64,000 nucleotides of DNA, from positions 20,956-84,955 of the forward strand of contig CANJZE010000003.1 in the NCBI GenBank assembly GCA_947479455.1, in the 5' to 3' direction. Positions within the stretch are counted from its first letter, which is position 1. Every line of letters starts with the position of its first letter. The DNA comes from Bacteroidota bacterium. GTDB taxonomy: Bacteria > Bacteroidota > Bacteroidia > Chitinophagales > LD1. A program made the translations under genes and the position numbers. The notes under the pieces are model-generated. The model ran no database searches, had not been told where the DNA came from, and saw nothing but the letters and a program-made list of their open reading frames with translations. Positions 17,153 through 36,332 of this stretch are shown here, piece by piece.

Positions 17153-17262
17153 AGATTTCTTAGGCGAAATGTCATGCATAACTTCTCAAAGCATTTTCAA
17201 GTTTCCTCAGTTGATTCTTTGAAAATGAAAAATACATTTGCGCCCTGTTCTAATTATTTATT

Positions 17263-17302
17263 GGGGAATTAGCTCATTTGGCTAGAGCGCTTGCATGGCA
17301 TG
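17263..17302 (+). other. attL: truncated 5' half of tRNA-Ala(GGC), acceptor through anticodon loop only
   Basis: GGGGAATTAGCTCATTTGGCTAGAGCGCTTGCATGGCATG matches 36333-36372 at 38 of 40 positions. The sequence then diverges into non-tRNA sequence with no T-arm. Confidence 0.85.
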
Positions 17303-17450: not shown

Positions 17451-18800
17451 ATGAAAAAGCTAAGAGCGTTTGCCTCCATCACTGCTATTCTAAGAACAAA
17501 CAGAAAAAATAAATATGGAGAATACACTGTTTGCATAAGGATAACTAAGGACAGAAAGGTATCCCTTCTCTCAACTCCATATTCTTCACCAAAAAAATAT
17601 TGGGATAATAAAATTCAACGCCCTAATGGGAAGCATTATGATGTTGATGAACTGGATAAGTATCTTGACGATACAATCTCTGAATTCAAAAAAATAATGA
17701 AAGAACTTTCTGCTACGGAAGATTACTATTCTGCAAAGCAGGTTGTTGATATTTATAGTGCAAGAAATCAACCCTCTGTAAAAACATCTGCACAACCCGA
17801 AATTACGTTCAAGGAATTTTATGAAAAACTTCTTAATAGAATGGAGAAAAAGGGGCAATACAAAACAAGGGAAACATATATTGCTTCTGTTGCTTGGTTA
17901 AACAAATTCAAAAAACTAGAAGACATACTGTTTACAGATTTGACCCTTACCTTTTTTGAGGAATTACTAGCCTTTATGATTAGTAAAAAAGAAGAAGAGG
18001 AAAAACCTCCGTTCAAACCAAGTACATTATTTGGCTACTTTAAAAACTACTTGGCAATAATGAGCAAGGCAGTTGCTGAAAATATAATTACACCCTCTTG
18101 CACTAATTATAAAGGATTTAAACTGTCGCAGTTTAAAGTAGCGGTAAATCTAATTGCTATTCCTGCTAGTCAAATGGTCGATATTATGACCTTGAAACTT
18201 CAGCCTAATACATCAATATGGAATAGCAGAAATTATATTGTCTTTAGTTTTTTAAGTAGCGGAATAAACTTGGTGGATATGGCAAAGCTTAAGAAAGAAA
18301 ATCTCCGTGATAGTAGAATCGAGTATATAAGGTCGAAAACTGGTGAACGGTGCGTATTTAAATTAAATCCTAAAACGGAAGAAATTCTTAAATTTTACGA
18401 GGGATACACTCACGCTGATTATCTATTTCCTATTCTTCTAAAAGATTATTCTAAAAAGCAACTCCATAACAGAGTAAAAACCGTTTCGCGAATTGTGAAC
18501 AAAGACCTTAAAGAAATTGCCCGCCAATGCAGGATAGAAAGCAACCTAACGTTTTATGTAGGACGACATACTTGTGCAACAGAACTAAAATACTCGGGGA
18601 TTCCTGATAGCGCAATTGGTGAAGGTTTTGGACATGGTTCATCTAAGTCAATAAAGAATTATCTTAAACGATTACCTGATAAAAACATTGATTTGCTTAG
18701 TGATATTCTTTACCAAAAGATAATGACCCCAAAATGTGGTGCCGATTCCGCTAAAAAAACGGTTAGAAAATTAAAGCGACCACTCGTTAAAGCAAAATAG
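17451..18800 (+). CDS. Tyrosine site-specific integrase (Bacteroidota arm-binding-domain type)
   Basis: N-terminal KNKYGEYTVCIRITKDRKVSLLST resembles Bacteroidota integrase arm-binding domains. The C-terminal catalytic region has FYVGRHTCATELKYSG (HxxR) and GHGSSKSIKNYLK (His...Tyr). The gene sits next to the att repeat. Confidence 0.85.
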   Translation: MKKLRAFASITAILRTNRKNKYGEYTVCIRITKDRKVSLLSTPYSSPKKYWDNKIQRPNGKHYDVDELDKYLDDTISEFKKIMKELSATEDYYSAKQVVDIYSARNQPSVKTSAQPEITFKEFYEKLLNRMEKKGQYKTRETYIASVAWLNKFKKLEDILFTDLTLTFFEELLAFMISKKEEEEKPPFKPSTLFGYFKNYLAIMSKAVAENIITPSCTNYKGFKLSQFKVAVNLIAIPASQMVDIMTLKLQPNTSIWNSRNYIVFSFLSSGINLVDMAKLKKENLRDSRIEYIRSKTGERCVFKLNPKTEEILKFYEGYTHADYLFPILLKDYSKKQLHNRVKTVSRIVNKDLKEIARQCRIESNLTFYVGRHTCATELKYSGIPDSAIGEGFGHGSSKSIKNYLKRLPDKNIDLLSDILYQKIMTPKCGADSAKKTVRKLKRPLVKAK

Positions 18801-18959: not shown

Positions 18960-19871
18960 TTATACAAGCCCGTTTATTAAATGCCTTATGTCAAACATCT
19001 GTATTACAGTTCTGTTTGTTGTTACACAAAATACCCTTACTGTCAAGATGCCATTGCTGTCAATCGAATGGGTATGAATAAATTTTGCCATTCCTTTCAT
19101 CATAGGAGGAATTTCATCAAAACTGAAATAGCCGATTGGTTGGTTGATGGAACTTATATGGCTTTCTCCGAATCGAATATCATTTGAGATGGAAATTTGG
19201 TTATCAAATGATGTAGTGATGGTAGAATATTTTTTCTCCGTTGGTATTTTTGAGTTTTTGGGTATCATTATTGTAAACTTATCGTCTTTCATCCCTTGAC
19301 CTATTGAGTTTTTTAAAGTCAATTCAGACCCAACAAAATCACTTCTGCTTTTAATAATTATATCTTCATCAGAAGCTAATTGGGCATCCTCTACTATTGT
19401 AATTTGTTGTGTATCTGTACTTGCATCATCCTTAACCGTTGAAACAAGTTTACATTCTTCTGTTAGCCTTTTAAAGTCAAGGAGAAATTCGTTTGCAACA
19501 GATTCATCTTTGATTATTGTGATGTTCTCTTGATTTTTATTCTCCGCAAAGTATGTCCAATTGTAAGAACCATTTATAACTGTTGCTTTATCAATTACGC
19601 AATACTTATTGTGCATCGGATTTTCAATATCACCGAAATAGAACTTACCACCTAAGTCAATAAATTTTTGGAAGTTCAATCCATCAGGCTTGTTATTTAT
19701 AGCATCGTTCAGAACGATTAGATTGATTTTAACTTCGGGTAACATATCACACAATACATCGAACAATTCATTGCTCGTAAACCAACAGACAGCGACATTG
19801 ATTTCCGCCTTTGCAGATTTCAATTCTTTTATAATCTCTTGACGTATGTCTTTGAAAAATGGTTTTATCAT
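18960..19871 (-). CDS. PLD-family (single HKD) nuclease domain fused to an Hsp70/DnaK-like substrate-binding beta-domain
   Basis: N-terminal HKD motif MHNKYCVIDKATVINGSYNWT (H.K....D......GS.N). The C-terminal ~110 aa align by eye to the DnaK SBD-beta: IMIPKNSKIPTEKKYSTITTSFDNQISISNDIRFGESHISSINQPIGYFSFDEIPPMMKGMAKFIHTHSIDSNGILTV against [76 protein letters not shown]. Confidence 0.7.
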   Translation of the reverse strand: MIKPFFKDIRQEIIKELKSAKAEINVAVCWFTSNELFDVLCDMLPEVKINLIVLNDAINNKPDGLNFQKFIDLGGKFYFGDIENPMHNKYCVIDKATVINGSYNWTYFAENKNQENITIIKDESVANEFLLDFKRLTEECKLVSTVKDDASTDTQQITIVEDAQLASDEDIIIKSRSDFVGSELTLKNSIGQGMKDDKFTIMIPKNSKIPTEKKYSTITTSFDNQISISNDIRFGESHISSINQPIGYFSFDEIPPMMKGMAKFIHTHSIDSNGILTVRVFCVTTNRTVIQMFDIRHLINGLV

Positions 19872-19915
19872 TTGAGTTTGCGGATACTATTCTACCAATG
19901 TTATAGTTGCTTCGC

Positions 19916-20962
19916 TTATGTTTCGAGGTTATTGAGTAGCTTGATAATTTGCTCTGCCAAGTCATTCACTACAACGTCTTCCGTTTTGTCTATCAAGGGG
20001 AATAAGGCAAATGATATTTCTCTACTGTTGTTTTCATAAGCGGTAACATTTAAGTGGCTCGCCAATTCACGGCTTCGTTTTCTTAGTCGGTCTGTCATCA
20101 CCCATTTCGCATTATTTGAAATATCATCCCTAACGAATATCCAAAAAGGCGAGTCCGCTCGTTCAGCCCAATACTCGAATTTCAATGATAATCCTGCACC
20201 AAATTTTTCCGTTTTAAAGAAACGGGTATAACCACCGCGATGTGCGCCCGAACTGAATCCCTTTGTATCGGCAATATTTCGCTTCCTTAATTCATCTATT
20301 ACCTTATCAAGAATATCATAGTATGAGTTAATTCTCTTTGCGTACTTCGGTGATAGTTCTTCACTTTGTATCGGTAGAAAGGCATTGCTATCAATCGTAT
20401 CACAGAAGCCAATAATTTGGTCTATGTCAGAAATCAAAACCTGCTCGTTATCCTGCACCAACTGTATTTTGACTGTTTGCAAAATTTCATTCCATGTTTT
20501 TACGAGCAGATGTTTGTTGCCATTGAATACAATGGAATGCGTTTCTTGATTTGAATTGCAATTTGCTTGAAAAGTATTACCGCGCTTCTGCAACTCGTCA
20601 AAAACAGGTCTAACACGAAGCGTTGGGCATATAAAAACTAATGCAGAGTTTTCTTGAAGTCGGTTTAAGTATTCATTCGGTTGATTGTCGGTAAGTGAAG
20701 CCCAAAACTTTGCTTCTAAAAGCAACACTTCTTTCCCGTCATTATTAAATCCCGATATATCAGGTCGCTCTAATTTATCTCCTACGTTTTGTGTAGAGTA
20801 GGTTATATCTTCAAAATCTAAATTACAGTTGCTCTTTATAATTCTGTTTATCGCAAGCCTTGCAGACTTTGACCTTTGCAATATGTATGCTAACCCTTCG
20901 GATGCTATGTCCTCCTGTGAGCCTTTAATCCGCGAATAAAATTGACCTAATAGTGACTGCAT
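19916..20962 (-). CDS. PD-(D/E)xK nuclease-fold protein with an uncharacterised C-terminal domain
   Basis: Motif ...LERPDISGFNNDGKEVLLLEAKFWA (PD ... E-A-K with canonical spacing). The remaining ~230 aa are unrecognised. Confidence 0.6.
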   Translation of the reverse strand: MQSLLGQFYSRIKGSQEDIASEGLAYILQRSKSARLAINRIIKSNCNLDFEDITYSTQNVGDKLERPDISGFNNDGKEVLLLEAKFWASLTDNQPNEYLNRLQENSALVFICPTLRVRPVFDELQKRGNTFQANCNSNQETHSIVFNGNKHLLVKTWNEILQTVKIQLVQDNEQVLISDIDQIIGFCDTIDSNAFLPIQSEELSPKYAKRINSYYDILDKVIDELRKRNIADTKGFSSGAHRGGYTRFFKTEKFGAGLSLKFEYWAERADSPFWIFVRDDISNNAKWVMTDRLRKRSRELASHLNVTAYENNSREISFALFPLIDKTEDVVVNDLAEQIIKLLNNLET

Positions 20963-20972
20963 TTATTTAGAT

Positions 20973-21863
20973 TTATTTCGATGCAAAAGATTTATATTTC
21001 AATACTCTTTTCCGTAATTCTTTATAATCATTTTCCTCTCCTTTCATTTTATGTAGCATTCTATGACAGTTCGAGCAAACAGTAATTAAATCTTCCTTGC
21101 TATTTTTGACTTTCCCACGAAGTTTTGATAGTGCAGTAGTATGATGAGCCTCTGCAAATCCTCTCCCAAGTTCACCGTAAGTGTTTTGAAAATCAAAATC
21201 ACAAACCTTGCATTTAAAGCCGTCACGTAATTTAACCTCATCAGCGAGTTTTTTTGACCTTTCTCTGCGAATATGTTGCGAAACGATTTTCCTATTCTCA
21301 TATGGATAATCCTCATTCGTATTCGATTCAATTTCAAGGGCTGAAACTGTGGCTTTCATTAGCCATTCAGTCTTCTTACTTATCCTGTTTAAGAATGACT
21401 TTTGGATTCTACCATTTGTTTTAATTTCATCAAAGAAGTAGTAAGTGAAAAATTTACTCTCATAGGGTTCAATAAGAAACCTTCCGAAATATTTCTTTGC
21501 AAGTGGCTTTTCAAGCATAGTTTCACCATCAGCATCCCTAATGTATGTTGAAGAATGGTCATCCTGAAAGTTACTTGATAAACTCTCTGCAATCTTTCTT
21601 ATTCTATCAATGTCGCGACACCAATAACAGATAGATATAACAGGTCTTCCAATATTCGGGAATAAATCAATCCAAAGATGAACGCCACCAATTTTTTTTA
21701 AACGAAACATCTTAACGGAATAGCCATAGGTGTCCATTTCCTCAACTTGCAAATCATCAATTCTAATTATTCTATGGTCGCGAATTTTACTTGTTAAGTC
21801 AGATTGAATTTCTTTCGCAATATCCTTAAGAATATTTTTGTAATCACGGCTTAATCTTTTCAT
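20973..21863 (-). CDS. HNH endonuclease (McrA-like C-terminal HNH) with an unknown N-terminal domain
   Basis: The C-terminus KLRDGFKCKVCDFDFQNTYGELGRGFAEAHHTTALSKLRG...LITVCSNCHRMLH carries CxxC...HH...CxxCH. Its start overlaps the upstream stop in an ATGA. Confidence 0.75.
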   Translation of the reverse strand: MKRLSRDYKNILKDIAKEIQSDLTSKIRDHRIIRIDDLQVEEMDTYGYSVKMFRLKKIGGVHLWIDLFPNIGRPVISICYWCRDIDRIRKIAESLSSNFQDDHSSTYIRDADGETMLEKPLAKKYFGRFLIEPYESKFFTYYFFDEIKTNGRIQKSFLNRISKKTEWLMKATVSALEIESNTNEDYPYENRKIVSQHIRRERSKKLADEVKLRDGFKCKVCDFDFQNTYGELGRGFAEAHHTTALSKLRGKVKNSKEDLITVCSNCHRMLHKMKGEENDYKELRKRVLKYKSFASK

Positions 21864-22618
21864 TTTTTAAAAATTGTATTCAGCAAATGAGCAAGCCTTA
21901 GCCCACTGAACAGAATTTGCTTTTCAACTATTGGAATGTTTTTGTCGAGATACTCTTGTGATAGTCGGTTATCAGAGAAGTTATAAACCGCAGGAAGATA
22001 AGCACGGGATTGCTCCATCCATTTAAGTAAATCTGTTTCTTCAATCTCCTGCTTTGAATATTTCGGCATCAACTTCAAACAATCTTCTTTCGTGATTCCG
22101 CTTTTCTGAATCATTTCTGAATCCCACAACTTGTGTAGGTTAGTTCCTTTCTCGAAGAACGTTACCTGAACTGTATTGCCTCCTTTATCTTTGCCGTAGC
22201 CAACGTGAAGCGGTTGGTGCAAATCCCCTACAAGATGAATTAAGATTTCCAAATCGCCTTTAACGCCCCATTGCGTTCTACTTTTGTTATCGCGAAGTCG
22301 TTGAGCAACATCGGTTAATTCGTTAATGATATTATCTCCTGTGGCTTGTTTATACTGCTCTCCCTTCTCTACATTGAGGTAGTGCATTGGCTTCATGTAA
22401 TCGAATGAGTGGTCGCTACGAATTACATCCATCCAAACACTTGCTTCTTCAATACTTGTGCCTGCTAAATATTTATCTACTGAATCTTTAACCGACTTGT
22501 CGAGGAACTGATAAGCGATGGATGCAATCATCTTATGCCCTTCTGCTCCCCACGCATTTGACTTTAATGGGATGTAGAGCGAAGTAACCGTAAGCAGTAT
22601 GCAACTTAATTTCTTCAT
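21860..22618 (-). CDS. S1/P1-family nuclease with signal peptide
   Basis: MKKLSCILLTVTSLYIPLKSNA then WGAEGHKMIA (the mature N-terminal Trp/His zinc ligands), HLVGDLHQPLH and NLHKLWD. ATGA overlaps occur at both ends (22615-22618 and 21860-21863). Confidence 0.85.
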   Translation of the reverse strand: MKKLSCILLTVTSLYIPLKSNAWGAEGHKMIASIAYQFLDKSVKDSVDKYLAGTSIEEASVWMDVIRSDHSFDYMKPMHYLNVEKGEQYKQATGDNIINELTDVAQRLRDNKSRTQWGVKGDLEILIHLVGDLHQPLHVGYGKDKGGNTVQVTFFEKGTNLHKLWDSEMIQKSGITKEDCLKLMPKYSKQEIEETDLLKWMEQSRAYLPAVYNFSDNRLSQEYLDKNIPIVEKQILFSGLRLAHLLNTIFKK

Positions 22619-23004
22619 GCTTCTTCTTTAAATAATTTTCGTCCGCTTAATTCTCCGAGTATCTTTTCCATCTTTTCATATTCTGACGTAAAGGTGCAAT
22701 AACCTGCGCGAATAATTTGTTGCCTTCCACAGTGAATGTGCAGTGACCATTCTATTCCATCAGTCACGTCAGAATCCCAACTGTATTTTTCCCAAAGAAC
22801 TATTGAAGGTAACATTTCGTTAAGTGGTTTCAATTCATCATCGGCAACTAATCTCTCAATGATATTTGGTGTATGAATCGGATTGTTTAAAGGATAGTCG
22901 CTATAAGTATGGATTACTTTGTTCTTCCGATATTCGATGCACTGATGTGACCCGAAGTAGCTGCCAATTTTGAATTTGAATGAACTGATTCTAAAGTTCG
23001 GCAT
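22615..23004 (-). CDS. Hypothetical 129-aa protein, second gene of the nuclease operon
   Basis: Intact ORF translationally coupled to the S1/P1 gene by an ATGA overlap. No motif recognised. Confidence 0.5.
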   Translation of the reverse strand: MPNFRISSFKFKIGSYFGSHQCIEYRKNKVIHTYSDYPLNNPIHTPNIIERLVADDELKPLNEMLPSIVLWEKYSWDSDVTDGIEWSLHIHCGRQQIIRAGYCTFTSEYEKMEKILGELSGRKLFKEEA

Positions 23005-23007
23005 CTG

Positions 23008-23172
23008 TCAGGTTTTGCTGAATATCAAAACCGCTCTAATAATCCCGCAAACAAGAATGCAAATAAGCCCGCCAAAAACTATAAACCTTCCTATCAGTTC
23101 TTCTTTGGTGTATTCACCGCCATCGGGTTTCGGGTAAATCAGAGAGTAAAGGTTGGAAAGTTGTCGTTTCAT
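23008..23172 (-). CDS. Small (54 aa) single-TM protein, not in the ORF track (below its size cut-off)
   Basis: Manual translation gives MKRQLSNLYSLIYPKPDGGEYTKEELIGRFIVFGGLICILVCGIIRAVLIFSKT. Its stop (23008-23010) lies 3 nt before the ATG of the 129-aa gene. Confidence 0.45.
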   Translation of the reverse strand: MKRQLSNLYSLIYPKPDGGEYTKEELIGRFIVFGGLICILVCGIIRAVLIFSKT

Positions 23173-23218
23173 GTTTAGAAAAAAGAATCAATAAGTTTAG
23201 TAATCGTGAATCACCAAA

Positions 23219-23731
23219 TCAAGGTTTAAGATATTTTTGATAATCCACTTTATCCTTTTTCTTCTTCTTTAATGCGTTATATTCTTCGGTAGCAGTAACA
23301 GCAATCCGAACCCAAATTGGGGGACAATGACTTTGAACTTTATTGAACGCCCTTCCCAAATCTTTAACGGGTAGCTTGTCCAATTTTAAGTAGCCAATGT
23401 ATTTGTAGAAATATATTTTTTGGTCTAACTCCTGCGTAAGATTGTTATGGCTTGCACCTACCCAAAAACTTTTTGTAAATATTTCTTTAGGTGAATTTCT
23501 TAGAACTTTATCAAAATAGAAAATTGCACTTTCATAGTCTTTGGCAATGAAGTAATCTACTCCCTTATTATAGTTCTCAATCCAATCATTTAAACGTTGC
23601 TGTTCATAAAAATCTAAGCCCTTATTCCAAGAACTATCAGTTGCAATTTTTTGAGGTGCATCCGTTGGACTTTGGCTAAAGCATAAAAAGCTGAAAACAC
23701 AGAGAAAATAAATGGGAATTACTTTTTTCAT
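23219..23731 (-). CDS. Secreted TPR-like small protein
   Basis: Signal peptide MKKVIPIYFLCVFSFLCFSQ. TPR-like helices are present (YNKGVDYFIAKDYESAIFYFDKVLRNSP). Confidence 0.5.
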   Translation of the reverse strand: MKKVIPIYFLCVFSFLCFSQSPTDAPQKIATDSSWNKGLDFYEQQRLNDWIENYNKGVDYFIAKDYESAIFYFDKVLRNSPKEIFTKSFWVGASHNNLTQELDQKIYFYKYIGYLKLDKLPVKDLGRAFNKVQSHCPPIWVRIAVTATEEYNALKKKKKDKVDYQKYLKP

Positions 23732-23753
23732 TTAAATGGTATTTTGAGTAAAT

Positions 23754-24002
23754 CTAAAAACGTTTCAACTCCGTTATATCAATACACGCCAAATACTTTT
23801 CCAATCTTTCGCCTTGTTTGAATGGCGTTACTTCCGATAGTTCTGTTTGCACCAAAACTACTTCGACATAAAAGCCATAAAGAGTATATAGGTTATATGC
23901 ACAATCTTCAATCACTGCGTTTGAAATAAACTCTCCTTTATCCCAAAGTATCTCTGCCCGTTCAGCAGTATCCAATAAAATGAATTCATACATTGATAGC
24001 AT
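23754..24002 (-). CDS. Hypothetical 82-aa protein
   Basis: ORF only; same strand and close spacing with its neighbours. Confidence 0.4.
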   Translation of the reverse strand: MLSMYEFILLDTAERAEILWDKGEFISNAVIEDCAYNLYTLYGFYVEVVLVQTELSEVTPFKQGERLEKYLACIDITELKRF

Positions 24003-24033
24003 ACTATTACATCAATCAAGTATTAACTAATAA

Positions 24034-25011
24034 TCAAATTGAAAATGCTTTCTGCAAAACTCCGTTTGAATTATATCCTTTCGTCTTGTTTGTAAAATAC
24101 TCCAGCACCTTTACCGTATCGCTATTAGTGAGTGATGTTTTGATTACGAATGAGTAAATATCTTCCCAACGAGTTCGGTCAAATTTTCTTTGTCCTGTCG
24201 CAATGATATGTGCGCCAAAGTCTTTTGCAATAGTTCCCTCTCGCCCTTCTAATACAAGATTGTAAAGATAAAAGTCAAGATTCATTTTATCCGCAATCCA
24301 AGTTCCAAGTAACCAAAACCGCATCAGTTCATATTTTTGGTCTTCCACTACGTCTTCATACTTACTTCTGAAAACTTTCGAGAACCAATTACCGCCTCCT
24401 GAAACATATTTTTTGGAAGACGTTTTGTGCTTTTCTAAGGCTTCACCTGTACCCGATGTTTTATTTCCTGATAGCACTTTGGCTTCTATAAAAAATAAAC
24501 CGATGTCGGTAATAACAATTATGTCAGGTTCGGAACCTTGTTTAATGGTTTCAACAAATTCAATTCGTGCTTTATTTAACCAAGACCATTGAGATTTTTC
24601 ATTCGGTGAATAAGACCATAAAATAAGTTCACTGTATTTTATCGGCTTACCTATTAGGTCGGATAGATAATCTGACAATAGGTTGTTTCGTTCAAGATAA
24701 CGGAACACATTCCAACTTACAGCGTCTTCGCTATTATTACTTTCAATGCGACTTTCCCTTTTCACTTTACTGATTTCGTTCAACCGCTTATCATCGTCAA
24801 TATCTATCCAAAGCAAATTATCATGAGGCTTCTCATAAATAAACGCAGATGGATAAACATATATCTTATGGTTTGGGCATTGAAAAGTGACAGGTAATCT
24901 CAACTCTTTTTTTTGGCGTCTTGCAACCTTATGATTACAATCTTTAACGGGACAATCAATTTCTGTTGTTGTAATCGAAAGATTTTCTTTCAAGTCATTA
25001 TATCCGTACAT
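24034..25011 (-). CDS. Putative PD-(D/E)xK restriction-endonuclease-like protein with an N-terminal Cys/His zinc-finger-like segment
   Basis: CPVKDCNHK...FQCPNHK (Cys/His pairs), then NSEDAVSWNVF... and SEPDIIVITDIGLFFIEAKVLSG (PD ... E-A-K). It is divergent from the Type ISP gene. Confidence 0.55.
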   Translation of the reverse strand: MYGYNDLKENLSITTTEIDCPVKDCNHKVARRQKKELRLPVTFQCPNHKIYVYPSAFIYEKPHDNLLWIDIDDDKRLNEISKVKRESRIESNNSEDAVSWNVFRYLERNNLLSDYLSDLIGKPIKYSELILWSYSPNEKSQWSWLNKARIEFVETIKQGSEPDIIVITDIGLFFIEAKVLSGNKTSGTGEALEKHKTSSKKYVSGGGNWFSKVFRSKYEDVVEDQKYELMRFWLLGTWIADKMNLDFYLYNLVLEGREGTIAKDFGAHIIATGQRKFDRTRWEDIYSFVIKTSLTNSDTVKVLEYFTNKTKGYNSNGVLQKAFSI

Positions 25012-25320: not shown

Positions 25321-28300
25321 ATGGCAATTACCTTCAATCAAATACTCGAAAAGTATAGAAAGATTTCTTTTTCAGAACGTGATAAAGGCGACCGTTTTGA
25401 AAGACTAATGCAAGCCTACTTGCTTACTGACCCCAAGTATTCTAACAAGCTGAAAAAGGTTTGGATGTGGAGTGAGTTTCATGGCAAGAATGATTTAGGT
25501 GGCGGTGATACAGGAATAGATTTAGTGGCTTTAACTAATGAAGGTGACTATTGGGCAATTCAGTGTAAGTGCTTTCAGGAAAGTTCTGTAATAGATAAAC
25601 CTGCTGTCGATTCTTTCCTTTCAACTTCGAGTAGAGAATTTAAAAACGAAGAATTAAAAACTGTTTCCTTCTCTCACCGACTTTGGATTTCAACTACGAA
25701 CAAATGGGGAACCAATGCAACGGAAGCAATAAAAAATCAGAAGCCACCTGTTACCCGACTAAACCTATATGACTTACAGGAAGCACCTGTTGATTGGGAA
25801 AAATTAGATAAGGGAATTCATGGTGAAGCATCTCGTACACCAAAGAAAACTTTACGGCTGCATCAAAAAGAAGCATTAGATAAAACACATGAACATTTTA
25901 AAAATGCGGAGCGCGGTAAACTTATCATGGCTTGCGGAACGGGAAAAACATTTAACTCACTTCGCATTGCTGAAAATGAAACTAATGGAAAAGGCTTAAT
26001 ACTTTTTTTAGTTCCTTCCATTGCTTTGTTGGGGCAAACTTTGCGCGAATGGTCATCAGATGCTAATGAACCAATCAATGCCATTTGCATTTGTTCTGAC
26101 CCTGAAATTTCAAGAAAGAAAACCAAGAACGAAGACAACGATAATTTCAGTGTGGTGGATTTAGCTTTACCCGCTTCTACAAATACAAAAGATATTCTTC
26201 ATCAGTTCCAACGCATTAAAACCAAAGGCAACTCGGGATTAACTGTTGTCTTTTCTACCTACCAATCCATTGAAGTTATTGCCCGCGCTCAAAAGGAATT
26301 ACTTAAAAATGGTTTCAGTGAATTTGATTTAATTATTTGTGACGAAGCACATCGTACTACGGGTGTTTCTTTGGCAGGAGAAGATGAATCCGCTTTCACT
26401 AAAGTTCACAACAACGATTTTATAAAAGGGAAAAAGCGTTTATACATGACTGCTACTCCTCGTTTGTATAATGATGATACAAAGAGCAAAGCTGCGCAAG
26501 CTGATGCTGTTTTGTGTTCAATGGACGACCCAAAATTATACGGTGAAGAAATTTATCGCATTGGTTTTGGTGAAGCAGTAGAGAGAGATTTGCTCACTGA
26601 TTATAAAGTTCTGATACTAACCCTTAGTGATAAAGATGTTCCGCCTGCCGTTCAAAAAATGATTGCAGATAAGGAAAGTGAAATCAATACCGATGATGCT
26701 TCTAAACTTATCGGTTGTATAAATGCTTTGTCAAAACAGATTTTAGGTGATGAAGGAATTATAAAAGCAAGCGACCCCGAACCTATGCGGAGAGCGGTTG
26801 CGTTTTGTTCAAGCATTGCTGTTTCAAAAAAGATAACAGCTACTTACAATACTGCCACCGATGCTTATATCAGTTCATTGCCAACAGATAAAAAGGATGA
26901 AATGGTTTCAGTTGCTTCCAAACATATTGACGGCACTATGTCAGCTCCCGAACGTGATGAATTATTGGGTTGGTTGAAAGAAGATTTCGATAACAACGAA
27001 TGTCGTGTCCTTACCAATGTTCGTTGTTTGAGTGAGGGTGTTGATGTGCCTTCCTTAGATGCAGTTATGTTTCTTTCTGCACGAAACTCACAGGTAGATG
27101 TAGTGCAATCAGTTGGTCGTGTGATGCGTAAATCAGAAGGGAAAAAATACGGGTATATTATTATACCTGTTGTAGTTCCTGCCGATGTTGAAGCTGACAA
27201 AGCCCTTGATGATAACGAAAGGTATAGAGTGGTTTGGACGGTTCTAAACGCACTCCGTGCGCATGATGACCGATTCAATGCTACGGTAAATAAAATTGAA
27301 CTCAACAAAAACAGACCCGCACAAATTTTAGTCGGCAGACCCGAATATTCTTGGGAAGATGGAAAGCCCGTTTCAGGTAGCAATGAAACAGGAACAAACA
27401 AAGACATCAGTAAACAAATGGCTTTGCAATTTGAGCAATTGCAACACGTAGTGTTTGCCCGTATGGTTAATAAAGTTGGCGACCGCAGGTATTGGGAGCA
27501 ATGGGCGAAAAGTGTAGCTGAAATTGCAGAACGACAAGTTGAACGCATCAACCGTTTAATCACCGAAGACAAAAAACATCAAAAAGCCTTTGCTAATTTC
27601 TTGGGTGGGTTACAAAAAAATATCAACCCGAGTATTACACAACAGGAAGCGGTGGAAATGCTTTCGCAACACATCATTACCAAACCTGTATTTGAAGCAT
27701 TGTTCGATGGCTATTCGTTTGTAAAGAACAATCCTATTTCGGTTTCTATGCAAACGATGTTGGATTTACTAGAAGAACAAGCTATTGAAAAGGATTTAGA
27801 TGTCCTACAAAAGTTTTATGATTTCGTAAAAAGAAATGCGGGCGGTATTGATAATGCTAAAGGAAAACAAGACATCATTATTAGGCTATACGACAGTTTC
27901 TTTAAGACTGCTTTCCCTAAAATGGTGGAGAAACTTGGCATTGTTTATACACCTACGGAAGTGGTAGACTTCATTATTCATTCGGTGAATGATGTATTGA
28001 AAAAAGAATTTGACCGCAGTATATCAGATGAAAACATTCACATCCTCGACCCTTTTACGGGAACAGGAACTTTTGTAACTCGATTACTGCAAAGCGGGTT
28101 GATTAAGAAAAAAGACCTCCAACGTAAATATCAAAATGAAATACACGCGAACGAAATTGTGTTGCTTGCCTATTACATAGCCGCAGTAAATATTGAAAAT
28201 GCTTATCACGATGCAATGGGAGAAATTGACTACCAAGCATTCGATGGAATTTGCTTAACCGACACATTTCAATTAGGCGAAAGCGATGAAAGCGAAAAAT

Positions 28301-30144
28301 TATTTTCCGAAATGTTTCCGCAAAACTCTGCTCGGGTAGCTAAGCAAAAACAGGCACCGCTTCGTGTAATCATGGGGAATCCGCCTTATTCTGTTGGACA
28401 GAAATCTGCTAATGATAATGCACAAAATCAGAGTTATAGAAAATTAGATAATCGAATTGCAGAAACCTATGTAGCTCTAACGGATGCAACTAATAAAAAC
28501 TCTTTATATGATTCTTACATAAAGGCATTTCGTTGGAGTACTGACCGATTAGATAAAAATGGTGGCATTATATGTTTTGTTTCAAATGGTGCATGGGTCG
28601 AAGGAAACAGCGCGGACGGTTTTCGTAAATCATTGGAAAAAGAATTCAGTTCTATTTATGTTTTCAATCTAAGAGGGAACGCAAGAACGAGTGGAGAACT
28701 TAGACAGAGAGAAGCAGGAAACGTATTTGGTGGTGGTTCTCGTACACCCATTGCTATAACTTTATTGGTAAAAAAGCCTGAATCAAAAAAACTAAAAGCA
28801 AGCATTCATTACCACGACATTGGAGATTACTTAAATCGTGAAGATAAATTAAAAGTTATAAAGGACTTTGGAACCGTTTTAAACGAAAATATTCAATGGA
28901 AACAACTGCAACCAAATGAGTTTGGTGATTGGATTAGTGTTAGAAACGAGGCTTTTTCACAGTTTATCCCCTTAGACGCAGAAAAGAAATTTAACCAAAA
29001 CTCTAAGTCATTTTTTATTGCTTATTCAAGAGGCAACGCATCATCGGCAGATGCGTGGGTTTATAATTATTCAAAACATTTGTTAGTCGAGAATGTAAAT
29101 TATACAATCTCCCATTATAATGAACAAAGGATTCTAATAAACAAAAAAAAGCAAAAAGAACCTATCAGAGATTCTACAAAAGGAAATTGGACAAGGGATT
29201 GGCTAAATCAATTACAAAAGAACAAAGAACTAAAGTTGAAGGAATGTGAGTATAGGATTGGTTCTTACCGACCTTTTGCAAAAACCAATCTTTATTTTGG
29301 TGATGAACTCAACCAAGAACGGTATTTACTCCCGAAATTACTTCCTAAAAAAAATTTAACCAACTTAGTAATATCTGTTTCTCAACGTTATACCGATGGA
29401 ACCGTTCTAATTACAGACAATATTCCTGACTTACATTTTAATGGTGATACACAGGCGTTCCCACTATATTATTATGAAGAACGGGAGATGCAAAATAAAG
29501 GATTGTTTGATGAAAGTGGTGAGAGTGAGTATATCCGTAGAGATGGAGTAAGTGATTTTATTTTGGAGCGCGCCAAAAAGAATTACGGCAAAACCGTAAA
29601 CAAAGAAGATATTTTCTATTACGTGTATGGCTTTTTGCATAGCCCCGAATATCGCTTAACTTATGCGAATGATTTAAAGAAAATGATGCCCCGATTACCG
29701 TTAGTAGAAGATGTAAGGGATTTTTGGAAGTTCAGTAAGGCAGGCAGAGCATTATCAGAGTTACATATCAATTACGAAACAGTTCCTGCCTATCGAGGCG
29801 TAATTGTAACAGGAGCAGATAGTGGTTTTTACACCGTAGAGAAAATGCGATTTCCGAAGAAAGACCAAAAGGATACGATTATTTACAACAGCAAAATCAC
29901 CATTTCAAACATACCTGCAAAAGCATACGAGTATGTTGTAAATGGTAAAAGTGCAATTGAATGGATTATGGAACGTTATGCCGTAACCACTCATAAAGAA
30001 AGCGGTATCAAAAACGACCCGAACGATTGGGCAGCAGAAGTGGGTAATCCGAAATATATTTTAGACCTGCTGTTAAGCATCATCAACGTGAGTATGCAAA
30101 CAGTGGAAATTGTTGAAGGATTGCCGAAGGTGAAGTTTGAATAA
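25321..30144 (+). CDS. Type ISP restriction-modification enzyme (Mrr-like nuclease, SF2 ATPase, N6-adenine methyltransferase, TRD in one 1607-aa polypeptide)
   Basis: N-terminal Mrr-type motif GIDLVAL...YWAIQCKC. Helicase motif I MACGTGKTF, motif II IICDEAHRTTG and motif VI-like QSVGRVMR. MTase motif I LDPFTGTGTF and motif IV VIMGNPPYS, followed by a ~550-aa C-terminal region. Domain order and size match LlaGI/LlaBIII-type enzymes. Confidence 0.8.
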   Translation: MAITFNQILEKYRKISFSERDKGDRFERLMQAYLLTDPKYSNKLKKVWMWSEFHGKNDLGGGDTGIDLVALTNEGDYWAIQCKCFQESSVIDKPAVDSFLSTSSREFKNEELKTVSFSHRLWISTTNKWGTNATEAIKNQKPPVTRLNLYDLQEAPVDWEKLDKGIHGEASRTPKKTLRLHQKEALDKTHEHFKNAERGKLIMACGTGKTFNSLRIAENETNGKGLILFLVPSIALLGQTLREWSSDANEPINAICICSDPEISRKKTKNEDNDNFSVVDLALPASTNTKDILHQFQRIKTKGNSGLTVVFSTYQSIEVIARAQKELLKNGFSEFDLIICDEAHRTTGVSLAGEDESAFTKVHNNDFIKGKKRLYMTATPRLYNDDTKSKAAQADAVLCSMDDPKLYGEEIYRIGFGEAVERDLLTDYKVLILTLSDKDVPPAVQKMIADKESEINTDDASKLIGCINALSKQILGDEGIIKASDPEPMRRAVAFCSSIAVSKKITATYNTATDAYISSLPTDKKDEMVSVASKHIDGTMSAPERDELLGWLKEDFDNNECRVLTNVRCLSEGVDVPSLDAVMFLSARNSQVDVVQSVGRVMRKSEGKKYGYIIIPVVVPADVEADKALDDNERYRVVWTVLNALRAHDDRFNATVNKIELNKNRPAQILVGRPEYSWEDGKPVSGSNETGTNKDISKQMALQFEQLQHVVFARMVNKVGDRRYWEQWAKSVAEIAERQVERINRLITEDKKHQKAFANFLGGLQKNINPSITQQEAVEMLSQHIITKPVFEALFDGYSFVKNNPISVSMQTMLDLLEEQAIEKDLDVLQKFYDFVKRNAGGIDNAKGKQDIIIRLYDSFFKTAFPKMVEKLGIVYTPTEVVDFIIHSVNDVLKKEFDRSISDENIHILDPFTGTGTFVTRLLQSGLIKKKDLQRKYQNEIHANEIVLLAYYIAAVNIENAYHDAMGEIDYQAFDGICLTDTFQLGESDESEKLFSEMFPQNSARVAKQKQAPLRVIMGNPPYSVGQKSANDNAQNQSYRKLDNRIAETYVALTDATNKNSLYDSYIKAFRWSTDRLDKNGGIICFVSNGAWVEGNSADGFRKSLEKEFSSIYVFNLRGNARTSGELRQREAGNVFGGGSRTPIAITLLVKKPESKKLKASIHYHDIGDYLNREDKLKVIKDFGTVLNENIQWKQLQPNEFGDWISVRNEAFSQFIPLDAEKKFNQNSKSFFIAYSRGNASSADAWVYNYSKHLLVENVNYTISHYNEQRILINKKKQKEPIRDSTKGNWTRDWLNQLQKNKELKLKECEYRIGSYRPFAKTNLYFGDELNQERYLLPKLLPKKNLTNLVISVSQRYTDGTVLITDNIPDLHFNGDTQAFPLYYYEEREMQNKGLFDESGESEYIRRDGVSDFILERAKKNYGKTVNKEDIFYYVYGFLHSPEYRLTYANDLKKMMPRLPLVEDVRDFWKFSKAGRALSELHINYETVPAYRGVIVTGADSGFYTVEKMRFPKKDQKDTIIYNSKITISNIPAKAYEYVVNGKSAIEWIMERYAVTTHKESGIKNDPNDWAAEVGNPKYILDLLLSIINVSMQTVEIVEGLPKVKFE

Positions 30145-30685: not shown

Positions 30686-31066
30686 ATGAATATTCGTAAC
30701 AATTCCGATTGGGTAGAGATAGCTGATAGCAATTTTCGATACAATGTTCAACTAAATGGCTTTAATATAGATTACGTTCAATATGCAAAAGAAAATCCCG
30801 AAAAAATAATTGGAATTGGGTTTGACATTGAAGGTGATGGTAAAAGCTATAACAAGATAATGAACAATGAAAACAATCGCAATGCAGTTCAAATGCTAAG
30901 TAGGAACAGTGATATATTTTTATTTACAGTTAGCAAGTGGAACATTGAGTATATGCCGAATGGCATCAATCAAACCAATATTTTTCGGTGGGAGGTAACA
31001 AACGATATATCTCGTTTGATTTTTTTAATCCGTGATTTTGCTGAAAGCAATAAGCCAATAGACTAA
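30686..31066 (+). CDS. Hypothetical 126-aa protein
   Basis: ORF only; 11-nt spacing from the previous ORF. Confidence 0.4.
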   Translation: MNIRNNSDWVEIADSNFRYNVQLNGFNIDYVQYAKENPEKIIGIGFDIEGDGKSYNKIMNNENNRNAVQMLSRNSDIFLFTVSKWNIEYMPNGINQTNIFRWEVTNDISRLIFLIRDFAESNKPID

Positions 31067-31077
31067 ACAACATTTAT

Positions 31078-31872
31078 ATGGATTCTCTCGCAGACAAAAA
31101 ATTGGTAGTAGATAAAATTAGAAATTTCGTATTCAATGAAATTCCTCATGCTAAATGGGGAGAAGATAAGCCACAAAGATTTTTGATTTTCAGGACTTTG
31201 CTTGCATTTCCGTTTAGACGACATGAAGGTTCTGTAAATTTGAAATTTACTAATTACAAAGACAAAGGGAATGACGAATGCCTTGAACGTTTTGTTTTAG
31301 TTATTGACGAATCGGAAATCAGATTAAGCTATTCAGACGAGAATGAATATGATAACTATTGCTATCATTTGGAAGGTGACCATGATGATTATAAGGATAT
31401 GGATTGGGAGGAGTGGATTAGACAAGTAGAAGCAGGTCTTGTTGCAAATGAGTTAGAACTTGAGGTTGAAGGTGGTTTGAAATTACTTTCTAAAAAAACG
31501 GGTTATGAATGTTTGCAAGACCGTTATGAATCAGAAGGATTAAAACAAGCAGAATATGACCCAAACTATGCGGATTCTGTAATTACAGAAAGTAATAGCA
31601 ATTATTTTGTTTTTAAAGATAGTAACGGCTACGGAGTTAAGGATGATGTTGGTGATATTCTTGAAGAAGGATTAACAAGCGAACCTGAATATTGGGGTAA
31701 AGAAGTTGATAGAGTGTCTTTTTATATTGGAGATAAAAATCATGATAGAATTTACGATGAGATTGGTGGGGAAGTTATTTGGGGCGACTTCAAAGTAATT
31801 GAAAATAAAGATGAGTATTTAGTTTTAAAAGATATGGACGGATTGGTGTCAAATCTTTATGAAGCAGAATAA
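31078..31872 (+). CDS. Hypothetical 264-aa strongly acidic protein
   Basis: ORF only; rich in D/E (DENEYDNYCYHLEGDHDDYKDMDWEEW). Confidence 0.45.
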   Translation: MDSLADKKLVVDKIRNFVFNEIPHAKWGEDKPQRFLIFRTLLAFPFRRHEGSVNLKFTNYKDKGNDECLERFVLVIDESEIRLSYSDENEYDNYCYHLEGDHDDYKDMDWEEWIRQVEAGLVANELELEVEGGLKLLSKKTGYECLQDRYESEGLKQAEYDPNYADSVITESNSNYFVFKDSNGYGVKDDVGDILEEGLTSEPEYWGKEVDRVSFYIGDKNHDRIYDEIGGEVIWGDFKVIENKDEYLVLKDMDGLVSNLYEAE

Positions 31873-32006
31873 TTGAACTGCTACCTCTTTTAACCAAATA
31901 TGGTTAAGCATGATATTTTTGTCAAGGATTGTCATGGCACATAAACCTCAAAAAAAGTATCATACTTCAAAAAGATATTTCTTAAGTTTGGAATAAATAA
32001 TACAAT

Positions 32007-32324
32007 ATGAAAACACATTATCTGAATGTAGAAAAGGTTTCAAAGTTTGAAGACATCTATAATTTCTTTTATAAAGGTGAAATATCAAATGGAGATGAAG
32101 TTGTTGTTGATGAAGGCACTTCGGGTTACGATTTTGTTCATAGACAAGTGATGTACGGAATTTTCAGAGAAGCCTTGCATCGTAAAAACTATGAAACTCA
32201 ACATTCCTATTACACACCACTTGAATACAAGATTCTTCCACCGTTTTTTGAAACCACGTTTTTCGCAGATACTTTAACGAAGGATACGGGAATTACATTT
32301 AAGGTTGTTAAGGGAAATTCGTAA
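32007..32324 (+). CDS. Hypothetical 105-aa protein
   Basis: ORF only. Confidence 0.4.
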   Translation: MKTHYLNVEKVSKFEDIYNFFYKGEISNGDEVVVDEGTSGYDFVHRQVMYGIFREALHRKNYETQHSYYTPLEYKILPPFFETTFFADTLTKDTGITFKVVKGNS

Positions 32325-32432
32325 ACGTAAATTTCAATTATTCTTATATAAGCTAAAATTTCACGTTCACGAAAAACGCGTTTGAACGCATATTAAATAC
32401 TATAAACTTTTTAAAAATTAAATTTAATAGCA

Positions 32433-32834: not shown

Positions 32835-32893
32835 AGAGCAAATAGGCATTCCTTTGCGGAGCGTTCAACCCGACAGAATAAACAAAATGAGTT

Positions 32894-33217: not shown

Positions 33218-33313
33218 CACCTAACAAACGTCCGTTTATTTATCATGGTTGTGACAGGGGAGGTTCCATAGGCAATTACTCGATTTTTTGAAAAACAATT
33301 ATTTGGGGGAGTA

Positions 33314-36260: not shown

Positions 36261-36286
36261 TAAATGTTTGACCAAATCAACGACCA
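36261..36286 (+). repeat. 26-bp perfect direct repeat, copy 2 (candidate arm-type recombinase site)
   Basis: TAAATGTTTGACCAAATCAACGACCA, identical to 17413-17438. It lies 46 nt upstream of the tRNA. Confidence 0.85.
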
Positions 36287-36332
36287 TCTTTTCTTCAATT
36301 GCAGAAAGATGTAGTGATTTTACCTATGAAAA

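Follow-up and report, generated by a model that had tools for sequence, protein, structure and literature searches.

A co-directional gene array in a tRNA-bounded island

The window, meaning the whole stretch of 64,000 nucleotides of a Bacteroidota bacterium that was analysed, contains an island of ~19 kb with tRNA-Ala sequences at both bounds and its cargo at 18960-25011. The left bound is a fragment that differs at 2 positions from the first 40 nt of the intact tRNA-Ala on the right (Table 1). A TAnnTTTG motif is found at 17233, 23 nt upstream of this fragment. The island also encodes two recombinases, a Rep-like HTH protein and a Type ISP restriction-modification enzyme with Mrr_cat_2, ResIII/Helicase_C, ISP_coupler, N6_Mtase and Type_ISP_C (E 8.5e-102) domains, whose gene diverges from the cargo in transcription direction. 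The repeat, the integrase and a complete Type ISP gene were all found, in agreement with the original prediction, which placed the operon in a tRNA-integrated island and beside such an enzyme.

That prediction described the cargo as an operon of six minus-strand genes encoding four nuclease folds. All six ORFs are located where it had placed them, but six is too few: the co-directional array continues upstream past g54 through TPR170, g82 and a NERD-like protein as far as 25011, giving nine ORFs. The tight packing is real, with 4-nt ATGA overlaps at g129/S1P1 and S1P1/HNH and gaps of 3 nt (g54/g129), 10 nt (HNH/348) and 44 nt (348/PLD), within an array-wide range of 3 to 46 nt. After scanning the array for promoters and terminators, we obtained signals at chance level, which speak neither for nor against an internal promoter or terminator. 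Judging by their spacing, the genes may be translationally coupled, and they would be co-transcribed.

Table 1. Coordinates of the island features within the window, with the basis of each assignment
Feature	Position	Strand	Basis
tRNA-Ala 5' fragment, 40 nt; left direct repeat of island (att-type)	17263-17302	+	Alignment to intact tRNA-Ala
Tyrosine integrase of island	17451-18800	+	Pfam Arm-DNA-bind_5, Phage_int_SAM_5, Phage_integrase
PLD-SBD-beta, 303 aa	18960-19871	-	Pfam, AF2 model, Foldseek, profile matches
348-aa PD-(D/E)xK protein	19916-20962	-	Family alignment, AF2 model, Foldseek
McrA-like HNH endonuclease (HNH-296), 296 aa	20973-21863	-	Pfam HNH E 2.4e-6; motif positions; homologues
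S1/P1 zinc nuclease, predicted secreted, 252 aa	21860-22618	-	Pfam S1-P1_nuclease E 3.4e-52, full length
g129, 129 aa, rare family	22615-23004	-	ORF; within 605-bp insertion relative to related island
g54, 54-aa ORF (candidate gene), hydrophobic C-terminal stretch	23008-23172	-	ORF only
TPR170, 170-aa TPR protein	23219-23731	-	TPR_1, TPR_2 matches, both under Pfam curated cut-offs
g82, 82 aa	23754-24002	-	ORF kept in related island
NERD-like protein, 325 aa; first gene of array	24034-25011	-	Pfam NERD weak, E 0.0024
Type ISP restriction-modification enzyme, 1607 aa, complete	25321-30144	+	Pfam
Serine recombinase (resolvase)	33314-33928	-	Pfam Resolvase, E 1e-37
Intact tRNA-Ala(GGC), right island boundary	36333-36407	+	ARAGORN; repeat of 17263-17302

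Nuclease folds and domain architectures

The four folds are present: S1/P1, HNH, PD-(D/E)xK and a PLD domain fused to an Hsp70 SBD-beta. The motifs of the array's nucleases are all intact.

In the PLD-SBD protein (Pfam PLDc_2, E 2.5e-21; HSP70 residues 394-483, E 6e-11), a disordered linker (154-181) connects a Nuc/Zucchini-type nuclease domain, with one HKD motif, to a C-terminal substrate-binding beta domain of Hsp70 that lacks the lid. The HKD residues H87, K89 and D94 occupy invariant columns of the family alignment, and profile searches matched Zucchini (4ggj, 2.5e-17) and Nuc (1byr, 8.4e-17). The AF2 model (pLDDT 82) superposes on the DnaK SBD-beta with an rmsd of ~1.0 Å over 110 residues at 27% identity (Foldseek E 3e-12). 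The protein would be a half-site nuclease that needs dimerisation to build one active site, and we suggest that the lidless peptide-binding domain gates dimerisation or activity when an extended peptide, of phage or partner-protein origin, docks on it.

Regarding the 348-aa protein, the weak sequence match to PDDEXK_4 (Pfam E 0.014) is backed by a D68/E83-x-K85 catalytic motif conserved in the family alignment and by Foldseek matches of its AF2 model (pLDDT 80) to YaeQ and NucS, themselves weak. These data support the PD-(D/E)xK fold. The C-terminal domain gave weak Foldseek matches only, to the DNA-binding domain of T4 MotA (MotA-CTD); across YaeQ, NucS and MotA-CTD the best E was 6e-3, with all values above 1e-3. 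The protein is a putative nuclease with a possible C-terminal DNA-binding domain.

The Pfam match and the motif positions of a C-terminal beta-beta-alpha-Me finger (C218/C221, H240/H241, N254, C263/C266, H267/H271) mark HNH-296 as an HNH protein of the McrA-like type. The finger is preceded by an N-terminal domain of unassigned fold. We found 230 homologues, mostly full length, across phyla, including Ignavibacteria, Dehalococcoidia and Planctomycetes; their sources name them McrA or HNH. HNH-296 would act as a standalone McrA-like, Type IV-style restriction nuclease, its N-terminal domain reading DNA, possibly modified DNA, and its finger cutting.

The S1/P1 nuclease carries a signal peptide (residues 1-22), as had been proposed. 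In P1 nuclease the N-terminal Trp is a zinc ligand. The signal peptide is supported here because the mature W1 of PDB 8qjl aligns to W23, the mature N-terminus. The motifs that should carry the zinc ligands also line up and are conserved. The enzyme would be exported and cut before this Trp; it would find its substrate, single-stranded nucleic acid, beyond the cytoplasm and so work apart from the cytoplasmic nucleases. TPR170 also has a signal-like N-terminus, g82 matched no Pfam family, and PADLOC gave no match for S1/P1, TPR170 or g82; the three may form an envelope module.

Among the remaining genes, g129 showed no match in Pfam, PADLOC, NCBIfam or PHROG, and its family has only 9 representatives among 1.84 billion proteins. 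As for the claimed 54-aa TM peptide, the ORF and its hydrophobic stretch are present, but its status as a gene did not find support, the gene call being absent from public records. Both may be a rare inserted pair. The NERD-like protein shows N-terminal cysteines (C20/C25, C45) and PD-(D/E)xK residues (D163, E176, K178) read from its sequence, and would be a standalone nuclease of this fold.

PLD-SBD, 348 and HNH-296 families occur apart in other genomes

Using family HMMs, we found zero cross-matches between the PLD-SBD, 348 and HNH-296 families in 81, 83 and 5 foreign loci, respectively (169 in total). Besides, tblastn with all window proteins detected no other window gene within 10 kb on either side of PLD-SBD homologues in 80 species-level genome loci. 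The same was true of 348-family homologues in 80 metagenome loci, on contigs that are often short (at least 1 kb upstream in 35 and downstream in 32 of them). Relatives of S1/P1, g129 and g54 were likewise not found by tblastn beside PLD-SBD or 348 homologues.

The PLD-SBD family belongs to Bacteroidota, and its neighbours vary, many being defence or mobile-element genes, with none universal. A gene for an iREC-REC (iREC+REC) protein lies directly upstream in 6 foreign loci, in 3 of which a RecD-like PDC-M16A gene is also adjacent; other neighbours include GmrSD, Type I R-M, patatin, relaxase/T4CP and integrase genes, as well as TBP-TOTE domains. The window contains no iREC/REC, TOTE-type or PDC-M16 partner. 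HNH-296 homologues have TIR/SEFIR, ThsB_TIR, GIY-YIG, GmrSD, HsdR and AAA_15 genes as neighbours, and their sequences and surroundings point to a cross-phylum, McrA-like standalone nuclease of defence islands. At 39 of 59 foreign loci, the gene directly upstream of the 348-family gene encodes a ~105-aa protein. This partner, without Pfam or PDB relative, is absent from the window. The pair sits between housekeeping genes and is spread across lineages, with AbiEi, Fic and Imm5-like neighbours at a few loci; the family would normally travel as a two-gene selfish or addiction-like module and appears orphaned in this island. In viral contigs, these families were either rare or missing.

The original prediction proposed the six genes as one candidate undescribed defence system, a claim that would be undermined if the homologues neither co-occurred nor were enriched in defence islands. 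The homologues of PLD-SBD, 348 and HNH-296 never co-occur in the foreign loci searched, and we regard a single system as very improbable; a defence-island setting was nevertheless found for HNH-296 and PLD-SBD, and a defence-type role for individual genes is therefore still plausible.

A related island with an exchanged nuclease gene

Only one other locus (L086) shares the block, in a close relative with 83-90% nucleotide identity. Amino acid identities are 88% for g82, 89% for TPR170, 92% for S1P1, 98% for 348 and 80% for PLD-SBD, while the 605-bp g54+g129 segment is missing and the NERD-like gene was not found there. In place of HNH-296 there is an unrelated 335-aa gene of the PD-(D/E)xK type (PDDEXK_4). 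This is an exact replacement: homology breaks at the S1P1 stop and resumes ~12 nt before the 348 start, so HNH-296 occupies an exchangeable slot. Between both islands, dS was 0.15 for 348, 0.40 for g82, 0.48 for TPR170, 0.79 for PLD-SBD and 1.25 for S1P1, with dN/dS of 0.05-0.17 (TPR170 0.10; g82 0.17), indicative of purifying selection. The low dN/dS shows that the shared genes are genuine, and the uneven dS that recombination has made the block a mosaic.

A stack of cassettes or a single system

Given that the PLD-SBD, 348 and HNH-296 families occur apart in other genomes, the array is likely to be a co-directional stack of separately acquired, exchangeable, mostly nuclease cassettes on an integrative element, and not one co-evolved system. 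The nuclease cassettes are probably defensive. Tight spacing and overlaps would then reflect gene-for-gene replacement at start and stop codons; the cassettes would probably share read-through transcription, their spacing being no sign of functional interdependence.

One could argue that the stretch from g54 to PLD-SBD, with its five or six genes, is one translationally coupled multi-nuclease defence system, in which infection is sensed by the unassigned domains or the SBD and several nucleases cooperate. Indeed, the overlaps and short gaps of the nine ORFs equal the packing of a true operon, the nuclease motifs are intact, purifying selection acts on the shared genes and the island setting includes an adjacent Type ISP enzyme. 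Moreover, the related island retains the g82-TPR170-S1P1-[slot]-348-PLD-SBD frame, the slot being filled by a nuclease in each island, which could be read as effector swapping inside one system. However, that island is no more than a close relative, so the shared frame reflects common descent, and the 8-fold dS spread makes even this frame a mosaic. Both g54 and g129 are dispensable there, and elsewhere the conserved partner of the 348 family is another gene. Since S1/P1 and TPR170 carry signal sequences, at least part of the array is predicted to work in another compartment, leaving no common cytoplasmic substrate. With the lack of co-occurrence in the HMM and tblastn searches added, a single system seems very improbable.

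The cassettes could also serve the element and not host immunity, by excluding rival mobile elements, by addiction or post-segregational killing, which would apply above all to the 348 module, or by degrading host or competitor DNA, with phage defence at most a side effect. The integrase, resolvase and Rep-like HTH protein of the island, the insertion of the 348 pair between housekeeping genes like a selfish module, its AbiEi, Fic and Imm5-like company, and the relaxase, T4CP and integrase genes near PLD-SBD homologues would fit. We consider this unlikely: homologues of HNH-296 and PLD-SBD lie beside classic anti-phage genes (GmrSD, Type I R-M, TIR, PDC candidates), and the 348-aa protein has lost its partner, the presumed antidote, which speaks against active addiction in this island, although defence and element-serving roles look alike at sequence level. 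Least credible is housekeeping salvage of nucleotides or phosphate from extracellular nucleic acids by the secreted S1/P1 nuclease with TPR170 and g82, a role that could be extended to the whole array. A complete S1/P1 nuclease with predicted export, the signal-like N-terminus of TPR170 and the lack of PADLOC matches agree with it, but these genes lie on a mobile island instead of among genes for transport or salvage, the other four nucleases come from restriction-like families and have no signal peptides, and it could account for the three-gene envelope module only.

Comparison with known systems

No named system matches the array, as originally proposed; PADLOC returned weak single-domain matches only. 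The array resembles defence islands and cargo hotspots on integrative elements, where R-M, Abi and nuclease genes accumulate independently in stacks, in its tRNA bounds, integrase, adjacent Type ISP enzyme, several restriction-like nucleases and gene-for-gene replacement between related islands. It differs in being unusually tight and co-directional, with ATGA overlaps, and in adding an exported S1/P1 nuclease along with proteins for which PADLOC 2.0 has no matching model.

HNH-296 is similar in size and layout to E. coli McrA and other standalone HNH Type IV enzymes, sharing with McrA an N-terminal non-catalytic domain, a C-terminal Cys-bracketed finger and a standalone gene in defence islands. 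Its sole PDB sequence match is the finger of McrA (6ghc, E 0.15), whereas the N-terminal domain has no detectable similarity. The 348 family, elsewhere a tight pair with its small upstream partner, resembles two-gene toxin-antitoxin or mini restriction-like modules in gene layout, in its insertion between housekeeping genes and in its spread across lineages; the pair is broken in the window.

The resemblance to iREC/REC-regulated and TOTE-type systems and to the PADLOC candidate PDC-M16 lies in the neighbours of PLD-SBD in foreign loci. TOTE-type conflict systems comprise TPR, OB, TBP and Effector components, as cited in PMC12458937. In contrast, the window's TPR protein is apparently exported, and the Pfam search revealed neither an OB nor a TBP domain. 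With Nuc (Salmonella pKM101), Zucchini/MitoPLD, DrmC, DpdK and MkoC, the last three of which are its weak PADLOC matches, PLD-SBD shares one HKD per chain in an HxK(x)4D(x)6GSxN motif, but only PLD-SBD bears a C-terminal Hsp70 SBD-beta. Its NCBIfam scores as DrmC (15.5 vs 133) or DpdK (21.1 vs 100) are far under the cut-offs, and the partner genes of DISARM, Dpd and Mokosh are missing around it.

Finally, PLD-SBD has the genuine SBD-beta fold of Hsp70/DnaK chaperones, and Hsp70 NBD/SBD-McrB fusions of Type IV restriction are a precedent for joining Hsp70 domains to restriction-type machinery (PMC11090510). Compared with these, it has no nucleotide-binding ATPase domain, alpha-helical lid or McrB GTPase and keeps only the peptide-binding beta sandwich, fused to a nuclease. 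This fusion and the 348-plus-partner module are leads worth following.

Organization of the island and its gene array

Nine ORFs run head to tail on the minus strand at 18960-25011, with ATGA overlaps at the g129/S1P1 and S1P1/HNH junctions and gaps of 3-46 nt elsewhere. The original prediction had described a packed, translationally coupled run of six genes with several nuclease folds. The ORFs, ATGA overlaps, short gaps and intact catalytic motifs are all present, but the array is really nine ORFs long, and one of the six, g54, lacks gene-call support; every other ORF is also called in public records of this DNA, namely MAG GCA_947481275.1 and Logan assemblies. The spacing is as tight as described, and translational coupling is suggested by that spacing only. 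Scans for sigma-70 promoters, terminators and the Bacteroidota -7 motif (TAnnTTTG) gave matches at or below the chance level and were uninformative on transcription units.

Features of the island, and foreign loci carrying neighbours of the array families
Feature	Coordinates	Strand	Description
tRNA-Ala 5' fragment	17263-17302		40 nt, repeats start of intact tRNA-Ala
PLD-SBD	18960-19871	-	303 aa
PD-(D/E)xK (348)	19916-20962	-	348 aa
HNH (HNH-296)	20973-21863	-	296 aa
S1/P1	21860-22618	-	252 aa
g129	22615-23004	-	129 aa
g54	23008-23172	-	54 aa, ORF without public gene call
TPR170	23219-23731	-	170 aa
g82	23754-24002	-	82 aa
NERD-like protein	24034-25011	-	325 aa, first gene of array
Lcl_C-domain protein	32433-32834		
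Serine resolvase	33314-33928		
HTH_36/RP-C-like protein	34916-35665		
Intact tRNA-Ala	36333-36407		
~105-aa partner of 348 family	L099:317-634		foreign locus (alignment A6)
~105-aa partner of 348 family	L176:7671-8000		foreign locus (alignment A6)
~105-aa partner of 348 family	L179:7672-8001		foreign locus (alignment A6)
iREC+REC locus	L019:8292-9992		
iREC+REC locus	L021:4916-6634		
iREC+REC locus	L030:8200-10017		
iREC+REC locus	L032:7698-10001		
iREC+REC locus	L033		
iREC+REC locus	L034		

The two copies of the tRNA-Ala repeat differ at 2 positions, and the part of the tRNA duplicated on integration seems to be the 5' half, where the 3' end would be usual. The displaced 5' fragment still has TACATTTG, a -7 motif of the Bacteroidota type, 23 nt upstream (17233-17302), and the intact tRNA-Ala has TAGGTTTG about 100 nt upstream (36225-36407). 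Between the copies lie a tyrosine integrase, a complete Type ISP enzyme, a resolvase and an HTH/Rep-like protein. The Type ISP enzyme is a single polypeptide of the LlaGI/LlaBIII type, with the Mrr-like nuclease, SF2 helicase, coupler, N6-MTase and C-terminal specificity domain all present (Type_ISP_C, E 8.5e-102). The repeat, the integrase and the complete five-domain enzyme thus bear out the tRNA-bounded island with an adjacent Type ISP enzyme that had been proposed. The rest of the island (30686-35665) encodes small unknown proteins besides the Lcl_C-domain, resolvase and HTH_36/RP-C-like genes, a content consistent with a mobilisable integrative element. A phage origin of the array families was considered and rejected: scans of viral contigs gave only 2 distant relatives of PLD-SBD, the fusion of a PLD nuclease to an Hsp70 SBD-beta, and none of the 348-aa or S1/P1 proteins.

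The array genes in other genomes

We surveyed the neighbourhoods of three array families. When every protein of the window was compared by tblastn with 80 PLD-SBD loci from species-representative genomes (+/-10 kb), no other array gene was found. Likewise, none of the other array genes was present in 80 metagenome loci of the 348 family, many of them on short contigs (at least 1 kb upstream in 35 and at least 1 kb downstream in 32), or in the five loci with homologues of HNH-296, the McrA-like HNH protein. Family HMMs, each built from about 100-120 homologues, gave zero cross-hits between PLD-SBD, 348 and HNH-296 in 81, 83 and 5 foreign loci, respectively. Co-occurrence of the component families across distant genomes, our operational definition of a single multi-gene defence system, was therefore not observed.

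Only L086, a related island in a close relative (83-90% nucleotide identity), has more than one array gene in common with the window, namely g82, TPR170, S1P1, 348 and PLD-SBD. In place of HNH-296 it carries an unrelated 335-aa PDDEXK_4 gene (window 20968-21856 versus L086:1942-2969). Homology ends at the S1P1 stop codon and restarts about 12 nt before the 348 start, an exact gene-for-gene replacement. The 335-aa protein was also considered as a paralogue of 348 and rejected, as the BLAST match over the nuclease core was not significant (E 0.69); any relationship would be remote and at the level of the fold. The slot upstream of the 348 gene behaves like a hotspot for cassettes. At L106, a 348 homologue (77% identity) has yet another upstream gene, encoding a 150-aa HNH protein.

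Synonymous divergence between window positions 18960-24002 and L086 shows an 8-fold spread between neighbours, with dS values of 0.15 for 348, 0.79 for PLD-SBD, 1.25 for S1P1 and 0.4-0.5 for TPR170 and g82. The comparison suggests that the 348 segment was recently replaced by recombination. All the genes common to both islands are under purifying selection (dN/dS 0.05-0.17). These genes are thus genuine, and recombination has made a mosaic of the block they form. The claim that six genes form one defence system does not survive the zero cross-hits among the three families and the altered content of the sole related block. What stands of the defence reading is the island setting and the defence-like character of individual genes.

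PLD-SBD-beta

The PLD-SBD protein matches Pfam PLDc_2 (76 bits, E 2.5e-21) and an Hsp70 SBD segment (E 6.3e-11). Each chain has a single HxK(x)4D(x)6GSxN motif, of which H87, K89, D94 and G101-S102-x-N104 are invariant in 16 homologues. In an AF2 monomer model (pLDDT 82), residues 154-181 form a disordered linker between a Nuc-like domain and a beta sandwich. The PLD half most resembles Zucchini/MitoPLD and Nuc. The sandwich aligns structurally with DnaK SBD-beta (~1.0 A, 27% identity), and the model contains neither an ATPase domain nor a lid. Nuc-type enzymes need a dimer to form the active site. From this requirement and the intact SBD fold, we infer that peptide binding by the SBD would gate dimerisation of the half-site nuclease.

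The family comprises 174 clusters in a set of 5.8 billion proteins and at least 252 confirmed stretches in species-representative genomes; of the 80 loci listed, nearly all are from Bacteroidota. No neighbour gene is shared by the whole family. In six Bacteroidota loci an iREC+REC protein (570-770 aa) is encoded directly upstream, and three of these six also have an adjacent gene for a RecD-like protein that matches PDC-M16A, a PADLOC candidate (E down to 5.5e-277). PLD-SBD may be an accessory effector of this candidate system. Other neighbours include GmrSD, Type I R-M, patatin effectors, TBP-TOTE proteins, relaxase/T4CP and integrases.

The 348-aa nuclease and its partner

The 348 family is very conserved (mean column identity 64%), with D68, E83 and K85 invariant in the alignment. 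The protein scored 15.8 against Pfam PDDEXK_4, below the cut-off of 22.3. Foldseek searches with its AF2 model (pLDDT 80) gave weak matches: YaeQ as the best, with a probability of 0.99 but an E-value of 6e-3, as well as NucS, which like YaeQ has the PD-(D/E)xK fold, and the DNA-binding domain of T4 MotA, none reaching 1e-3. By its core motif we classify 348 as a PD-(D/E)xK nuclease, and assign it with moderate confidence to the restriction-endonuclease-like fold.

In 39 of the 59 loci with upstream sequence, the 348-family gene is directly preceded by one for a ~105-aa protein (motif W-x-F-A-K-T...P-H-E-Y...Y-W...N-R), overlapping it or a few nt away. Searches of Pfam, PHROG and PDB gave no relative of this partner, and its HMM matched neither the six-frame translation of the window nor the 335-aa protein of L086. 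The pair is flanked by housekeeping genes (2-oxoglutarate dehydrogenase, ribosomal proteins, ParAB) and in a minority of cases by TA, Abi or R-M genes, which is the pattern of a small selfish module. Together, 348 and its partner look like an undescribed module.

HNH-296 and the remaining genes

HNH-296 matches Pfam HNH with 28 bits (cut-off 21.4, E 2.4e-6) and carries the motif residues C218/C221, H240/H241, N254, C263/C266 and H267/H271. Its sole PDB sequence match, a marginal one, is the HNH finger of E. coli McrA, and the N-terminal ~200 residues matched nothing in Pfam or PDB by sequence. There are 230 detectable homologues across phyla, mostly full length (~290-300 aa) and labelled McrA or HNH endonuclease by their sources. 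They occur as single genes amid TIR/SEFIR, ThsB_TIR, GIY-YIG, GmrSD, HsdR and AAA_15 genes. One homologue (39% identity; L173:4303-6906) begins 3 nt after the gene of a 564-aa AAA_15/AAA_21 ATPase, adjoined by GmrSD and Type I HsdR, and this may be an ATPase+HNH two-gene variant.

S1/P1 is a full-length member of its family, covering positions 1-258 of the 258 in PF02265 (S1-P1_nuclease; 178.3 bits, cut-off 29.5, E 3.4e-52). It also matches PDB 8qjl (E 5.7e-31), with W23 paired to residue 1 of the mature chain, and the predicted zinc-ligand motifs WGAEGH, WMD, HYLN, HLVGDLHQPLH and NLHKLWD are conserved. Compared with L086, which has 14 bp at this place, the window carries a 605-bp insertion (22613-23217) that contains g129 and the uncalled g54 and also alters the first 18 residues of S1/P1. 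With 9 representatives in 1.84 billion protein clusters, the g129 product is almost an orphan.

The NERD-like gene is a fifth nuclease-like gene, left out of the set originally proposed. Its product has a weak Pfam NERD match, N-terminal Cys motifs (C20/C25, C45) and a nuclease motif (D163...E176-x-K178); a PDB sequence search gave no match.

Possible functions of the array

The array is likely to consist of cassettes that were acquired independently and are stacked in the cargo region of an integrative element. Gene-for-gene exchange of these cassettes at start and stop codons would also account for the tight spacing. Most plausibly, the cytoplasmic members (NERD-like, HNH-296, 348 and PLD-SBD-beta) would be standalone restriction-like or conflict nucleases. 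For the exported S1/P1 with TPR170 and g82, the most likely explanation is an envelope module working in another compartment. Housekeeping scavenging is plausible for this S1/P1 module only, and we regard it as highly improbable. One could argue that the packing points to a true multi-nuclease defence system. Operon-like packing and mixed nuclease folds are, however, insufficient to call a new defence system, and with the component families found apart in other genomes this is very unlikely. A variant confined to this lineage, in which S1/P1-[variable nuclease]-348-PLD-SBD would be one system with a swappable effector slot, could accommodate the replacement in L086; it too is unlikely, to the point of being a slender chance. 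Functions that serve the element itself, such as exclusion or addiction, would suit genes carried on a mobilisable element, and we judge them improbable. What resolves the array as a mosaic is the co-occurrence test, together with the exact swap of a cassette in one related island.

More tentatively, the island could be a bank of immune modules, at least two of them so far undescribed and each made of one or two genes, a possibility that we find rather doubtful: a PLD-SBD-beta sensor-nuclease, and 348 with its ~105-aa 'WxFAKT..PHEY' partner. In the former, the lidless SBD would recognise a peptide in extended form, be it from a phage protein, an unfolded protein or the tail of a partner, and thereby license dimerisation of the half-site Nuc/Zucchini-type nuclease. 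If defensive, the widespread Bacteroidota PLD-SBD family would present a chaperone peptide-binding module as an infection sensor. The other lead is a highly conserved PD-(D/E)xK protein travelling with a small non-Pfam partner. The two families are from Bacteroidota, a group in which defence genes have been little surveyed.

Comparison with known systems

The gene combination had not been recognised as any named system, and PADLOC, NCBIfam and PHROGs agreed, giving only weak single-domain matches for all nine array proteins. Likeness to DrmC, DpdK, MkoC and ZorE is confined to the catalytic domain, far below the family cut-offs. DISARM and Dpd were rejected on NCBIfam scores (DrmC_I 15.5 against a cut-off of 133, DpdK 21.1 against 100) and because none of the nine array proteins matches a core partner (DrmA/B/MTase, DpdA-K); Mokosh, on a weak MkoC match with none of the nine proteins matching the core component MkoA/B; and Zorya type II, on a ZorE score of 14.7 against 600 with no ZorA/B match among the array proteins.

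Contexts of the iREC/REC and TOTE-type conflict systems (PMC12458937) surround some PLD-SBD homologues, but not the copy in the window. An iREC-REC HMM made from the foreign loci had no match in the six-frame window, and Pfam found no TBP-TOTE, OB or iREC domain in the array proteins. Membership of TOTE or iREC-REC systems was rejected, as the required TPR-OB, TBP and/or iREC-REC proteins were not found beside the effector.

Hsp70 chaperones have an N-terminal actin-like ATPase (NBD), SBD-beta and an alpha lid, whereas the PLD-SBD model ends after the beta sandwich. The protein was rejected as an Hsp70, since only HSP70 profile positions 394-483 match, with no NBD, and it scores 47-50 on the DnaK models of NCBIfam, whose cut-offs are 648-822. 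The literature searched, which covered key reviews incompletely, held no description of a PLD-Hsp70-SBD fusion, a weak negative. Hsp70 domains within restriction-type machinery have their closest precedent in an Hsp70 NBD/SBD-McrB fusion described with CoCoNuT systems (PMC11090510). As a whole, the array is a further instance of something known, a mosaic nuclease-rich island, in which the PLD-SBD-beta fusion and the pair of 348 and its partner are uncharacterised architectures worth following.
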